This document shows, piece by piece, positions 10,841 to 48,368 of a stretch of DNA of 64,000 nt (positions are counted from its first letter, which is position 1; each line of letters starts with the position of its first letter). The stretch is from an uncultured archaeon. GTDB taxonomy: Archaea; Aenigmatarchaeota; Aenigmatarchaeia; CG10238-14. The stretch lies in assembly GCA_964347415.1 (NCBI GenBank), contig CAYFYJ010000009.1:7940-71939 (forward strand), given 5' to 3'. The translations under genes and the position numbers were made by a program. Under the pieces are notes generated by a model. That model had not been told where the DNA came from, searched no databases, and was given only the letters and a program-made list of their open reading frames with translations.

Positions 10841-11500
10841 TTAAGTCCGCTGCTCTAGACAACCTATATCGAACAAAGTCTCATACATATCTTTGACTCT
10901 TGAAGCTAAGCTTTTTTCATATTTACAGCCAGTGGAAACGAATTTAGCTGAAGTGAATAACAGGAATACACTTCCTTTTTCCAAAGGGCCTCTTCCCTTA
11001 GGTAAATATTCCTCTGTATCTCTAGCAATGAGTCCAGGAAACTGTTCAGGTTCATACATGCGTCCATATCTAGGGGGTAGATTATAATGAGCCTTTTCAA
11101 GATCAATAATACCATAGAAATCGCCAGAAGCAACTATGTTCTGGATGGTGACCTCACGAACTCTAAATTTTCTCCTCTCAATATTTTCTAATTCTCTGAT
11201 AATTCTCCTTATTGCTTTTTTAGCCCCCTCCTCGGATTTAGTACCAGTACAGACCATTTTACCTGAGTTAAATATTAATGTGGTGGATCTTGGTGCTATT
11301 AAGCGAAATGGTAATCCTGGAAAAATCTCTGGTCTATATCTCAAACCTCTATGATATTGTGCAATTTTTCTTAAATCTAATCTACTACCGGCTGAAGCTG
11401 TAGCCACTACATTTTCTATATTGTATCTGTATGGTCTTTCTAACATAGAATCTATAAAAATGGTTAAAAATTTAAATACATTTTTTGTGATTTCTCTCAT
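10841..11500 (-). CDS. tbp: TATA-box binding protein
   Basis: Two TBP repeats: [30 protein letters not shown] and [31 protein letters not shown]. The true start may be the internal Met (MLERPY..); the long form overlaps the scpB stop by ATGA. Confidence 0.9.
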   Translation of the reverse strand: [219 protein letters not shown]

Positions 11501-42138: not shown

Positions 42139-43044
42139 ATGTTGGAAGATTTTATAGACATACTGCTTAGACCGAAAGAATTTTTTGAAGATGCTGGTCC
42201 ACAAGACTATTTTCTCCTCTGCAGGTTTTGGGTAATAATGTCCTTTGTTCCGGCCGTAGAATTCGCTATAATCGCTTTCTTCTCTAAAATTCCGATAAAC
42301 ATTCCTTTTGCGACAACTGGTATTGTCTTGGCAATTATAATTTTCATCACTTCATTTCTGTCCTTAGCTAGTGGAGGATTGGTTCTCAGCTTCATTTATG
42401 CAGGGATAATTCATATGGTTTGTCGTTTGTTTGGATGTAGAGGATTCAAGAAAACGCTAACACCAGTAATAATCTCTAGCTTACCGAATCTTCTAGCGGG
42501 ATTTTGTCAACAGATGCTCTTCACTCTAGGAATTTCTTTCTTTTCCTCTCTCTTCGCTGATTATATGATTTTCATAATATTTTTACTGTCTGTTACAGCT
42601 GTCTTATGGTTCTGGTCTCTGATAATAAACATAATCGGGATAGCCACGTTACATAACATTTCTGCGGTTAAAGCGACAGTATCTGTTTTTATCATTCCTT
42701 TGATAATTGTTTTGAGCATCGGGGCTTTCTTGACTGACATGTCTCTGACGTATGTTAAAGAAATCTTAACTTCTAGAGCATCTGCAATTTCTATCAATGC
42801 GTATTGTATGAACGGGGATATAGTGATAAATCTATTTAATGGTAGAAATGATGCCATGAGTGGTGACTCAATAAAAGTTTTTATTGACGATGTTGATGAT
42901 AGTGTATACTTCAATTTCGGTACTATCGCACCTGAGACATCGAAAGAAGCCATAGATTTTAAACTCGATATGTATTCTGCAGGAAAGCATAAGGTAGAAG
43001 TTAAATATCGTAGTAGTATTGCTGGTGCGATTGTTGAGTGCTAA
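42139..43044 (+). CDS. Yip1-domain membrane protein with C-terminal extracytoplasmic beta-rich domain
   Basis: N-terminal FIDILLRPKEFFED, then 5 TM helices, then a ~90-aa soluble tail. Confidence 0.6.
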   Translation: MLEDFIDILLRPKEFFEDAGPQDYFLLCRFWVIMSFVPAVEFAIIAFFSKIPINIPFATTGIVLAIIIFITSFLSLASGGLVLSFIYAGIIHMVCRLFGCRGFKKTLTPVIISSLPNLLAGFCQQMLFTLGISFFSSLFADYMIFIIFLLSVTAVLWFWSLIINIIGIATLHNISAVKATVSVFIIPLIIVLSIGAFLTDMSLTYVKEILTSRASAISINAYCMNGDIVINLFNGRNDAMSGDSIKVFIDDVDDSVYFNFGTIAPETSKEAIDFKLDMYSAGKHKVEVKYRSSIAGAIVEC

Positions 43045-43973
43045 TATAAAACCCTAATTTTGGGGCCCAGCATTTTATCTAATAATGCTTTCTGAGTATG
43101 TAATCTATTCTCAGCCTGGTCAAACACAATGGATTTTGGTCCATCGATGACTTCAGGCGTTACTTCCTCTCCTCTATGAGCAGGTAAACAATGCATATAA
43201 ATAGCATCATTTGCAGCCAGTTTAAAAAGTTTGTTAGTAACTTGATACTTTGGTATGAACACTTTTAGTCTCTTTGATTTTTCTTTCTCGTCACCCATAC
43301 TGATGAAGGTGTCGTTGTAGATTATATTTGCATTTTTTACTGCTGTTTTGGGTTCTGTCGTGATAACAACTTTTGATTTTGTAATTTTGGAATAATCTTT
43401 TGCCATTCTGACTATTTGTTTATTCGGTTCATATCCTTTAGGCGAAGCAACAGAAATATCCATGCCAACTTTAGCACAGCCTAGGAGTAAAGAGTTACAG
43501 ACGTTATTACCATCCCCGACATAAGCCAATTTTAAGCCTTTAAAATCCCCAAACTTTTCTTTGATAGTGAAAAGGTCTGACAAGATTTGGCAAGGATGGG
43601 TTAAATCACTTAGAGCATTGACAACATTTTTATTCATAGATTTTGACATTATCTCCAACGTTTTGTGGGAAAAAACTCTTGCGACGACAGCATCAACATA
43701 TCTATCCAACACTTTCGCAGTATCTTCTATGGTTTCTCCTCTGGCCAATTGACTCGTTGATTTATCCATGTAGATACTCCCCCCGCCCATCTGTTGAATC
43801 CCAGTCTCAAAAGAAAGCCTAGTTCTGGTCGATGATTTTTCGAACAATAAACAAAATACTTTACCCTTTAAAAGATTGTTAATAGGATTTTTCTTTAATT
43901 TTTCAGACAATTCAAGGATTTCAAGGATTTCCCCTCTTTTAAGATCATCAAGAGTCAATAGATCTTTCTTCAT
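43041..43973 (-). CDS. argF: Ornithine carbamoyltransferase
   Basis: SSTRTRLSFE, HPCQILSD, DGNNVCNS, HCLPAHRGEEV. Confidence 0.95.
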   Translation of the reverse strand: MKKDLLTLDDLKRGEILEILELSEKLKKNPINNLLKGKVFCLLFEKSSTRTRLSFETGIQQMGGGSIYMDKSTSQLARGETIEDTAKVLDRYVDAVVARVFSHKTLEIMSKSMNKNVVNALSDLTHPCQILSDLFTIKEKFGDFKGLKLAYVGDGNNVCNSLLLGCAKVGMDISVASPKGYEPNKQIVRMAKDYSKITKSKVVITTEPKTAVKNANIIYNDTFISMGDEKEKSKRLKVFIPKYQVTNKLFKLAANDAIYMHCLPAHRGEEVTPEVIDGPKSIVFDQAENRLHTQKALLDKMLGPKIRVLY

Positions 43974-44045
43974 TTTACCCCCTCCATTTTTTAATTCTTT
44001 GAATAATTTTTTTTAATAAGAATTCGTTTGTCCAAAATATGTTTT

Positions 44046-44939
44046 TCAATAACGAGTTATTATAGTACCTGCTTTATTCTTCAACGCCTTCTCTAACGAT
44101 AGTAATTCTGTGATGATGACTCTCTTTCCACCTTTTTTTAAGAATTCTATACTAGCTTCAATCTTGGGTTTCATCGATCCCTCTTTGAAATGCCCCTGTT
44201 TAAGGTATTTCATCGCTTCCTCGACTATAATTTTTTTAAGAGGTTTTTGATTCTTTTTTCCATAATTCAAGTAAACAGAATTAACATTAGTCAAAAGAAT
44301 GAGAGTTTCGGCTTTAAGCTCGGTAGCAAGTTTTTGAGACGCATAATCTTTATCTATTACCGCTTCGATTCCAATTAACTTTCTTTTTTTCAGAACTACT
44401 GGTATTCCTCCTCCACCACAAGCTATCACGATTATACCTTTTTTAACCAAATTCTTAATCCCTCCCAATTCTATTATTTTCCTTGGTTTGGGTGATGGAA
44501 CAACTTTCCTCCAACCCTCTTCTTGTTTAGTCATGTTCTTAAAGATTTTCCTAGGATAATAAGGACCAATAGGTTTTGTAGGTTTTTTGAAAGCTGGGTC
44601 TTTTCTATTCACTAATACTTGAGTCATTACTGTGGTAACCGGTTTTTTCAATTCATTCCTTAAGTTTATCTGCAGAAAATAGCCAATCTGACCTTGAGTC
44701 ATGGCATCACAAACATCCAAGGGCATTGAAGGAATTTTTTGTTTAGATCTTTCTTGTTGTAAGAGTAAATTACCAACTTGAGGACCATTTCCGTGTGTTA
44801 TTACAATTCGATATTTTTTAAGAAGAACTCTTAATTGTTTTACAGTCTTGTTTATATTTTTCAGTTGTTGTTGAAAAGTTCCTTTTTCGTTTGACTTGAG
44901 AATGGCATTCCCCCCAAGAGCAATAACCGCAATCCTCAT
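44046..44939 (-). CDS. arcC: Carbamate kinase
   Basis: MRIAVIALGGNAI, ITHGNGPQVG, ACGGGGIPV; amino-acid-kinase fold, 297 aa. Confidence 0.9.
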   Translation of the reverse strand: MRIAVIALGGNAILKSNEKGTFQQQLKNINKTVKQLRVLLKKYRIVITHGNGPQVGNLLLQQERSKQKIPSMPLDVCDAMTQGQIGYFLQINLRNELKKPVTTVMTQVLVNRKDPAFKKPTKPIGPYYPRKIFKNMTKQEEGWRKVVPSPKPRKIIELGGIKNLVKKGIIVIACGGGGIPVVLKKRKLIGIEAVIDKDYASQKLATELKAETLILLTNVNSVYLNYGKKNQKPLKKIIVEEAMKYLKQGHFKEGSMKPKIEASIEFLKKGGKRVIITELLSLEKALKNKAGTIITRY

Positions 44940-45645: not shown

Positions 45646-46428
45646 CTAAATCATGATTATCGTTGTTTCTATTATTCCGCCAATTATTAAGAAAATGAAA
45701 GCAATGGCCAATAATTTCATAGAATCTTGAATTATATCCCAAAATTTCACAGATTTTCTTCTTGTCACTGCAGCAGATACGAGCCCACCAGCTATAGCCC
45801 CTATAAAATATGCGCCTATTTCGAATGTTCCATGAGGTATGAACATGAGAACTGCGGATGGTAGAGCTATGAGTCCACCTGAAGATTTGGCTATTAGACC
45901 TATCGCAGACGAGAGGACAGAAGCATTCCAAGCCAGTATGAAAATGGCTCCGGAACCGAACAGGAAAGAGAATAAGAATGAGAGTGTTAAAACACTGGAG
46001 TTGTTGGCGAATATTTCTACGAACTTGTTACCAAAATCAAACCTTCCTCTTATCAAGTTGACTTCATTTATCTGATCGGAAAAAACTTTTTCAACGACCG
46101 TATCAGGTAGAATAACAAAACTCAAAGACATCGCAATAATCATTCCTGAGAATAAGGCGACATAAGCAAAAATTATATCCCCGTAACGTTGAAAAAAAGT
46201 ATGGGTGTCCATCATCTTTTCGTCTTCATGTGCCTCATACCTTAACAAACGGTTTATGAATGGTAATGATGACAGAGTTATTATTATGACCGTAAACAAA
46301 CCAGTAGACTGTGGGAAGATGCTATAAGCAACGAACAGAGATATTAAAGAAATAACGATACCGAGACCAAAAGCTTTGAGCGGGTCTTTCAATATTTCTT
46401 TAGTTCCTGCTATCCTGTCTAAAACCAT
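45646..46428 (-). CDS. SpoIIM-family (DUF95) membrane protein
   Basis: 260 aa, 6 TM, FIPHGTFEIGAYFIGAIAGG motif. Confidence 0.7.
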   Translation of the reverse strand: MVLDRIAGTKEILKDPLKAFGLGIVISLISLFVAYSIFPQSTGLFTVIIITLSSLPFINRLLRYEAHEDEKMMDTHTFFQRYGDIIFAYVALFSGMIIAMSLSFVILPDTVVEKVFSDQINEVNLIRGRFDFGNKFVEIFANNSSVLTLSFLFSFLFGSGAIFILAWNASVLSSAIGLIAKSSGGLIALPSAVLMFIPHGTFEIGAYFIGAIAGGLVSAAVTRRKSVKFWDIIQDSMKLLAIAFIFLIIGGIIETTIIMI

Positions 46429-46456: not shown

Positions 46457-46465
46457 TATAAATTA
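46457..46465 (+). promoter_or_regulatory. TATA-box-like element for the tRNA-Ser/tRNA-Gly unit
   Basis: TATAAATTA is centred ~29 nt upstream of the tRNA-Ser 5' end. AT-rich background lowers specificity. Confidence 0.4.
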
Positions 46466-46489: not shown

Positions 46490-46631
46490 GCCGGGATGGC
46501 AGAATCTGGTTAATGCGCTCGGCTCGAGCGCTCGATGATGAACCCTGAGGTATCTGATAAGTGATGATACAATGGAGATCAGAGAAACCGAGTGCCCTTT
46601 GGGCTTGTGAGTTCAAATCTCACTCCCGGCG
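46490..46631 (+). tRNA. tRNA-Ser (anticodon CGA) with a 58-nt intron at the canonical 37/38 site
   Basis: Hand-folded. Acceptor GCCGGGA/TCCCGGC, G73, 3-bp D stem GCA/TGC, anticodon stem CTCGG/CCGAG, loop CU-CGA-G[intron 46529-46586]A, long variable arm GCCC-TTT-GGGC, T arm GTGAG-TTCAAAT-CTCAC. The mature length is 84 nt. Confidence 0.85.
46529..46586 (+). ncRNA. Box C/D sRNA-like element embedded in the tRNA-Ser intron
   Basis: C AUGAUGA (46535-41), 12 nt, D' CUGA (46554-57), UAA, C' GUGAUGA (46561-67), 12 nt, D-like CAGA (46580-83). Confidence 0.6.
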
Positions 46632-46645
46632 TCATTAATGGATGA

Positions 46646-46719
46646 GCGTCAATGGTCCAGCCTGGTTAAGACTCGAGCTTCCCAAGCTTGCAACGCGGGT
46701 TCGAATCCCGCTTGGCGCA
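46646..46719 (+). tRNA. tRNA-Gly (anticodon CCC)
   Basis: Hand-folded. Acceptor GCGTCAA/TTGGCGC (one G:U), anticodon stem CGAGC/GCTTG with loop UU-CCC-AA, T arm GCGGG-TTCGAAT-CCCGC, A73. Confidence 0.9.
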
Positions 46720-47986: not shown

Positions 47987-48181
47987 ATGATAATCCCGGT
48001 AAGATGTTTTTCATGCGGTAAGGTCATAGGTCATTTGTATGAAGATTTTATGAGACGAGTCAAGACAGGGAAAGACCCGGCAAAGGTCTTGGATGATTTA
48101 GGCGTGGAAAGATACTGTTGTAGGGCTGTACTCTTAGGACATGTTGATTTGGTAAAGAAAATATCTCAGTTCAAAGTCTGA
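47987..48181 (+). CDS. rpoN: DNA-directed RNA polymerase subunit N (Rpo10)
   Basis: [33 protein letters not shown]. Confidence 0.95.
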
Positions 48182-48368
48182 TGATAATAATCCATAACAG
48201 ATGGGAAGATGAAGAAATAAAAGCCATTTGAGGACTACTGAGGTTACTTATTTTGTAAATAAATTGATCAGAATTAATTAACTTTCGTCAAATTGAAATA
48301 CAATTAAGAAACGAAATGTAAGAAATTTAATAAAGAACTATATCCTTTGTCACATACCTATAATCATC

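Follow-up and report, generated by a model that had tools for sequence, protein, structure and literature searches.

According to reviews up to 2024, functionally established intron-borne box C/D guide RNAs of archaea are confined to tRNA-Trp, where they modify the host tRNA itself, and no intron other than that of tRNA-Trp is named as host of a C/D sRNA in the reviews of 2011, 2021 and 2024. In euryarchaeal pre-tRNA-Trp (Haloferax volcanii; sR50 of Pyrococcus) the intron at the 37/38 position is a complete C/D guide that targets C34 and U39 of its own host; the machinery for tRNA splicing sets it free, and it is able to work in trans (PMC7994747, PMC11408192). [quoted passage not shown] The biogenesis of C/D sRNAs is also coupled to that of tRNAs in dicistronic transcripts (tRNA-Ser of I. 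hospitalis, tRNA-Pro of T. tenax, tRNA-Val of N. equitans, and plants), in which the sRNA lies downstream of the tRNA and is freed by 3' end processing (PMC7994747).

Here we analysed a tRNA-Ser(CGA) gene in a 64-kb stretch of archaeal DNA, called the window in its entirety from here on, which is assigned by the L18e and SpoIIM proteins encoded near the gene (with named matches in NCBI metagenome-assembled genomes) to Candidatus Aenigmarchaeota, a DPANN lineage. As in euryarchaeal pre-tRNA-Trp, a complete C/D guide occupies the intron at 37/38, but it shows no complementarity to its host and its conserved guide matches 23S rRNA. As in N. equitans tRNA-Met, a short intron of a non-Trp tRNA in a DPANN archaeon carries C/D-like boxes; in comparison with the published passages on that intron, the tRNA-Ser intron has all four boxes, both 12-nt spacers, conservation across lineages and a predicted rRNA target. 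The route of release would be intron excision, unlike the 3' end processing of the dicistronic sRNAs. The preliminary description of this locus was right in citing the pre-tRNA-Trp guides as a known precedent and incomplete in overlooking the N. equitans proposal, to the extent that the passages cited above describe it. We consider it rather probable (roughly 0.6) that the gene is a functional Aenigmarchaeota tRNA-Ser(CGA) and that its intron is a C/D sRNA guiding methylation of 23S rRNA at the equivalent of E. coli residue 2441. The features on which this reading is built are the following.

46457..46464, + strand: putative archaeal TATA box TATAAATT, at -33 to -26, recognised by position and consensus only
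46490..46528, + strand: 5' exon of tRNA-Ser(CGA), positions 1-37, with anticodon CGA at 46525-46527 (Rfam tRNA model; covariation of exon stems in seven orthologs)
46523..46525, + strand: C32, U33 and C34, 5' strand of the 3-bp central helix of the splice motif (RNAalifold consensus, paired in 7/7)
46529..46586, + strand: 58-nt intron at the canonical 37/38 position, a predicted box C/D sRNA (sequence, Rfam, layout scan and orthologs)
46535..46541, + strand: C box AUGAUGA, invariant in 7/7 lineages
46542..46553, + strand: D' guide ACCCUGAGGUAU, 10 of 13 alignment columns invariant, positions 2-11 complementary to 23S helix 74
46554..46557, + strand: D' box CUGA, invariant in 7/7 lineages
46561..46567, + strand: C' box GUGAUGA, RUGAUGA in 7/7 lineages
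46568..46579, + strand: D guide UACAAUGGAGAU, variable among lineages
46580..46583, + strand: D box variant CAGA, invariant in 7/7 lineages and non-consensus
46587..46631, + strand: 3' exon with A38, anticodon stem, long variable arm, T arm, acceptor stem and G73 (Rfam, RNAalifold)

The Rfam tRNA model matched 46490-46631 (+) over its full length with 43 bits, against a gathering score of 29, and its alignment placed a 62-nt insertion inside the anticodon loop. The exons form a class II tRNA with acceptor stem GCCGGGA/UCCCGGC, G73, a D stem of 3 bp, an anticodon stem CUCGG/CCGAG with loop CU-CGA-G, a long variable arm and a T arm, and the preliminary identification of a class II tRNA-Ser(CGA) with a 58-nt intron at the canonical site is upheld by the Rfam match. 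ARAGORN made no call at this gene in the window and called the ortholog of lineage L142 as tRNA-Ser(cga) with an intron. A purine-rich stretch precedes the putative TATA box, which would be the promoter of the tRNA-Ser transcript and perhaps also of tRNA-Gly(CCC) (46646-46719, +), the latter beginning 14 nt after tRNA-Ser, a spacing that makes co-transcription of the two probable. The tRNA-Gly(CCC) gene is found on the contigs of L142 and L141 too, and that of L018 (8987-9071) has an 11-nt intron according to ARAGORN. On the other side, a gene for a SpoIIM-family membrane protein (45646-46428, -) is divergent from tRNA-Ser(CGA) at 46490 (+), a pairing found in 7/7 lineages, with a MazG gene lying between the two in L142. 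Towards the L18e-L13-S9-rpoN cluster, by contrast, synteny is interrupted by various insertions (Na/Ca exchanger, PPDK, ParA). Two adjacent genes at 43041-44939 (-) encode ornithine carbamoyltransferase and carbamate kinase, components of a pathway of the arginine deiminase type, and this pair is syntenic in L001.

Within the intron, the C box close to the 5' end has the form RUGAUGA, the internal D' and C' boxes (CUGA and GUGAUGA) are separated by a linker of 3 nt (UAA), both spacers measure 12 nt, and the box close to the 3' end reads CAGA, off the CUGA consensus. The C/12/D'/3/C'/12/D guide architecture reported at the outset proved exact in all its coordinates, and the layout is kept in seven lineages. 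A regular expression for the whole C/D'/C'/D layout, applied to both strands of the 64-kb window, found a single site, the tRNA-Ser intron, and had 0 occurrences in 200 shuffles. Covariance models of C/D RNAs, to which the preliminary description had looked for confirmation, gave a divided answer: about 15 archaeal C/D sRNA families of Rfam match the intron (among them snoPyro_CD with 24.9 bits and sR3 with 24.1 bits; E 4e-4 to 5e-3), but every match falls below the gathering score, as expected because those family models are guide-specific. The terminal stem that closes the C/D kink-turn can have no more than 1-2 bp (UC/GA) while the intron is linear, and this short stem and the CAGA box are among the points that count against the whole reading. 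The expressed sR14 of N. equitans ends in a CAGA D box just as the window intron does (PMC4644070), and the ends of C/D sRNAs in N. equitans are likewise unpaired, some of these RNAs being circular according to the passages of PMC3491384 on this point. Overall, the interpretation of the intron as a C/D guide is well supported by its boxes, spacing and conservation.

Orthologs were taken to be the tRNA-Ser(CGA) genes on contigs encoding L18e and SpoIIM, and seven lineages were aligned: the window, L001, L139, L005 (GCA_030018415.1), L014, L008 and L142, the most diverged of them, whose SpoIIM is only 60% identical to that of the window. All seven genes (7/7) contain the intron. At six base pairs of the exons, located in the anticodon, variable and T stems, both partners have changed in a compensatory way (RNAalifold, seven orthologs), and in this comparison the exons behave as a working tRNA. 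In the intron the mean pairwise identity among the seven lineages is 1.00 for the C, D' and D boxes, 0.92 for the C' box (which varies at its first purine only), 0.91 for the D' guide and 0.69 for the D guide, and it drops to 0.52 in the 5' leader and 0.46 in the D'-C' linker; the spacers deviate from 12 nt only in L014 (13 nt for D') and L008 (13 nt for D). Boxes and D' guide being conserved while leader and linker have diverged to about 50%, selection appears to act on the boxes and one guide, unlike what a decaying insertion would show. The comparison of tRNA-Ser(CGA) introns in related genomes, proposed earlier as a check, thus came out in favour of conserved boxes and spacer lengths. In the more distant lineages L017, L018, L141 and L145 the synteny between SpoIIM/L18e and tRNA-Ser is lost, and these lineages are hence uninformative on the intron.

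The D' guide reads ACCC[U/A]GAGGUAU across lineages. The 3' strand of 23S helix 74, directly 5' of GGGAUAAC, was scanned in genome contigs with the pattern AAAGNTACCTCNGGGATAAC, which gave at least 120 matches including 23S genes; among the matches listed most are bacterial and none is an Aenigmarchaeota 23S. Six archaeal rRNA loci retrieved with the target pattern were compared (L048, L108, L043, L068, L130 and L080), so that the helix 74 site is present in each of them by construction. The two closest of these, L048 and L108, are Nanoarchaeota-like by their GAPDH and not Aenigmarchaeota; their 23S reads CUACCUCAGGGA and forms 10 contiguous Watson-Crick pairs with positions 2-11 of the window guide, at the site of E. 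coli 2438-2447 in helix 74. Three Methanobacteria and Ca. Aramenus (Sulfolobales) (L043, L068, L130, L080) read UACCUCGGGGA, giving 9 Watson-Crick pairs and 1 G-U with the same guide. Archaeal C/D guides are expected to have at least about 9 bp of complementarity to rRNA or tRNA, with the target at the fifth nucleotide from D/D'; the D' guide offers 10 contiguous pairs with the 23S of other archaea. The helix 74 site is the best match of the guide in 6/6 of the archaeal loci, tied on run length in L068. With the 23S of L048, ten Watson-Crick pairs are also attained by 43 of 5000 shuffled guides.

The fifth target nucleotide of this duplex corresponds to E. coli 2441. The same is true of I. hospitalis sR425 and of sR16 of M. 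kandleri (MKAsR16; D guide CCCCUGGGGUAC), whose D guides pair with UACCCCGGGG (PMC4644070); when their pairing with the 23S was recomputed from the published sequences, both fell in the same register, by which the predicted methylated residue would be C2441. These two RNAs are listed as separate sRNA genes with the helix 74 guide at D, whereas here the RNA is a tRNA intron with the guide at D'. In the supplement of Dennis et al. (2015) the block 2428-2527 of 23S is dense with predicted C/D targets, and many sRNAs are listed twice within it (PMC4644070); N. equitans sR14 and M. maripaludis sR106, similarly recomputed, target U2438, three residues from 2441. Turning to the individual positions of the guide, its invariant CCC faces the universal G2445-G2447, and position 8 (U, A or AA) lies opposite residue 2444, which itself varies and takes part in a base pair of helix 74; with A in three lineages and AA in one, position 8 would mispair with A or G at 2444 unless the rRNA covaries. 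Residue 2442 is C in the seven reference species of Dennis et al. and would mispair with position 6 of the window guide, so that the prediction depends on U2442, as found in some archaea including DPANN relatives. The preliminary description had treated both 12-nt guides as complements of full target 12-mers, and here it needs narrowing, because the D' duplex uses positions 2-11 only and position 12, A or C among lineages, faces A2448. Its suggestion of a trans target such as rRNA gains support for the D' guide from the match to helix 74 of other archaea. The most likely role of the D' guide, as judged from these pairings, is to direct 23S methylation near the peptidyl-transferase centre at the residue equivalent to E. 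coli 2441, and we regard this rRNA target as moderately supported.

The best surviving alternative, to which we give a minor share of the probability, is that the intron is a genuine C/D guide whose D' guide acts elsewhere, on the strand CUACCUCGAUGU (E. coli 2495-2506, by Cm2498), on a tRNA or on another RNA. In its favour, the helix 74 match is known from the 23S of other archaea, the tRNAs compared were the host and its neighbours in the window, and in most reference archaea UACCUCG at 2496-2502 offers the D' guide 7 contiguous pairs plus 2. However, pairing at the peptidyl-transferase strand leaves the invariant CCC of the guide unpaired, whereas the helix 74 site accounts for which guide positions are conserved and which vary, and the window and related loci yielded no target for the D' guide. 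Searches of the window and orthologous loci for guide targets returned only the antisense of the guides themselves, scans of viral contigs returned nothing, and E. coli rRNA used as a proxy gave weak matches only. Several arrangements of targets were tried and discarded: both 12-mer targets adjacent in one RNA (0 matches in the genome-contig scan), targets past the sarcin-ricin loop, in helix 96 of 23S (0 matches in metagenomes), and targets in helices 71-74 upstream of AAGACCC (2 matches, neither in rRNA).

The rRNA loci of the two DPANN relatives show some features of their own. L048:2092-5112 and L108:2113-6041 are 23S genes of Nanoarchaeota-like DPANN metagenome-assembled genomes; their peptidyl-transferase strand, otherwise near-universal, reads UACAUCGUUGUCGG, with U in place of E. 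coli A2503, and CGG comes directly after GGGAUAAC. In both, RNase P RNA lies just downstream of the 23S, and the 23S of L108 spans 3.9 kb against a model of 2987 positions, which suggests an intron or insertion. A tRNA at L108:7009-7121 (+) has an intron of about 40 nt with a short hairpin (GAAATAAGAATTTCG / CGTTTCGTAACGAAACAG) and no C/D boxes.

The D guide is evolutionarily labile among the lineages compared. Five of them share the form UACAAYGGAGAU, that of L008 is unrelated to it, and that of L142, UACGUCGAUGUU, is identical to it at 7 of 12 positions. The L142 guide forms ten contiguous pairs (one of them G-U) with UACAUCGAUGUC, the Sulfolobales peptidyl-transferase strand at 2496-2507; the pairing covers 23S 2497-2506, 59 nt downstream of the D' site, with U2500 as the fifth target nucleotide. 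Both L142 guides match the Sulfolobales 23S within this distance, and of 20000 shuffled guide pairs only 6 have matches no more than 100 nt apart in an 8-kb rRNA locus. By its pairing the L142 ortholog looks like a classical dual guide for domain V, similar to MKAsR16, a dual guide whose second arm lies on C2498 of the peptidyl-transferase strand (PMC4644070). For the window D guide nothing convincing was found in the window, related loci, E. coli rRNA, archaeal rRNA loci or reference archaea; its best match consists of seven contiguous pairs with an unusual CGUUGU variant of the peptidyl-transferase strand in L048. An apparent match at L048:3746 was rejected, its site being part of a variable hairpin that other archaea do not conserve.

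The splice motif of the intron was obtained as an RNAalifold consensus, in which the anticodon stem is followed by three bulged nucleotides of the 3' strand (AA|A38 or AU|A38) and a 3-bp helix. This recovers the relaxed bulge-helix-bulge, with its AAA bulge and 3-bp CUC/GAG helix, that had previously been built on the window sequence. The helix pairs C32 with G, U33 with A and C34 with G, in 7/7 sequences (alignment columns 34-36 / 95-97), and in the window the 3' bulge is 46585-46587 (AA|A38). The 5' splice site lies in a loop of 8-10 nt, in place of the 3-nt bulge of the full motif, and the motif at this 37/38 intron is hence the relaxed hBH form. The preliminary description had also pointed to a duplicated GCUCGA and to two alternative folds arising from it. 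The duplication is present in the window but absent in 6/6 orthologs, the introns of which start with UACUCA, UACG, CAUUCG, UAUUCA, UACU or UGUUCG, and the alternative fold, in which CCGAG of the 3' exon pairs next to the C box, was rejected because it is not conserved among them. A palindrome, GCGCUCG / CGAGCGC at window 46515-46531, spans the 5' exon and the first intron bases and occurs in no ortholog; it dominates the single-sequence fold of the window pre-tRNA, and since the duplication is specific to the window this hairpin is taken to be incidental.

The 3' strand of the splice helix is made of G and A of the CAGA D box (46582-83) and the next G (46584). Since G and A of the D box are held in this helix, the splice-competent fold and the C/D kink-turn would not be able to coexist. 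This mutual exclusion of kink-turn and endonuclease recognition is also what one would expect if the C/D motifs were mainly L7Ae-binding elements that chaperone the folding of pre-tRNA-Ser or time its splicing, guiding no methylation, and the D guide having no identified target in the window lineage fits such a role as well. Protein binding alone, however, leaves unexplained a 12-nt guide with 91% conservation between a variable leader and a variable linker, the exact 12-nt spacers, and the complementarity to a hot spot of rRNA methylation, and we therefore hold this explanation to be unlikely. Still less probable is a chance resemblance, or a relic, now decaying, of a mobile C/D element that inserted into the intron: the non-canonical D box, the D guide differing among lineages and the Rfam matches all below threshold could be read in this way, but shuffles produced 0 such architectures, and the C, D' and D boxes are invariant and the D' guide conserved while neutral intron positions diverged to about 50%. 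Methylation of its own host tRNA, although no other function of an archaeal C/D RNA carried by an intron has been established by experiment (PMC11408192), is contradicted by the sequence and very improbable, as neither guide is complementary to the host anticodon arm in the manner of pre-tRNA-Trp, the longest run against the tRNA-Ser exons and precursor being 7 including G-U for the D' guide, which does no better with the neighbouring tRNAs, and 5 for the D guide. The host and neighbouring tRNAs were rejected as guide targets on these figures, in agreement with the earlier observation that neither guide is complementary to them.

We return to the reading of the intron as a C/D sRNA for 23S. 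A search by tblastn for fibrillarin, Nop5 and L7Ae gave no match across about 250 kb of Aenigmarchaeota sequence, which amounts to only a small fraction of a genome; the C/D proteins are assumed to be present only because fibrillarin and Nop5 are used as near-universal single-copy marker genes of archaea (PMC9258230). Immediately 3' of rpoN, at window 48173-48236 (+), the sequence holds a second box C/D sRNA, a stand-alone one, which is found also at L139:11430-11479, L008 ~11415-11478 and L001 ~11399-11461. Besides a C' box, this RNA carries (C)UGAUGA as its C box and UUGA or CUGA as its D box; its D guide, AAUAAAAGCC(A/C)U, is conserved, and its ends pair in a terminal stem of 4-5 bp (AGUC/GACU in the window). 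No target for it was found in the archaeal 23S rRNAs compared. The conservation of this second sRNA suggests that these organisms use the C/D system.

We infer the excision route, circularisation, RNP assembly and the methylation itself as follows. The pre-tRNA-Ser would be transcribed from its own promoter, and the splicing endonuclease would cut at the relaxed hBH motif, formed by the anticodon stem, the AAA bulge and the 3-bp helix between C32-C34 and the GAG that begins inside the D box and ends just after it. Exon ligation would yield mature tRNA-Ser, and the released intron, probably circularised by the tRNA ligase, would be free to form the C/D and C'/D' kink-turn or kink-loop motifs and to assemble with L7Ae, Nop5 and fibrillarin. 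An active guide would be reached most economically by excision and subsequent circularisation, and the latter step would close the C/D motif despite a stem of 1-2 bp. Positions 2-11 of the D' guide would then pair with helix 74 on its 3' strand, which adjoins the 5' side of GGGAUAAC in the peptidyl-transferase centre, and direct 2'-O-methylation at the 2441 equivalent, and in L142 the D guide would target 2497-2506 (U2500), as in a typical dual guide. A more far-reaching version, which we put forward tentatively and consider doubtful, is that in this DPANN clade tRNA splicing is obligatory for producing a guide to the peptidyl-transferase region of 23S, the D box doubling as a strand of the splice helix and the second guide arm being swapped freely while the first stays fixed. 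The double use of the D box would in that case imply that the precursor is cut, and the intron probably circularised, before the guide RNP forms, and modification of the ribosome would be tied to the production of tRNA-Ser(CGA).

If the proposed reading is true, the arrangement known from pre-tRNA-Trp would be extended to a new host, tRNA-Ser(CGA), and to a new class of target, 23S rRNA, and would be a prokaryotic parallel to the intron-hosted snoRNAs of eukaryotes. It would bear on the proposed link between mobile C/D sRNAs and tRNA introns, and it would provide a concrete system in which to study, in an organism with a reduced genome, whether splicing or RNP assembly comes first. Annotation pipelines for tRNAs and sRNAs overlook such a gene, ARAGORN having skipped it and the C/D families of Rfam remaining below threshold.
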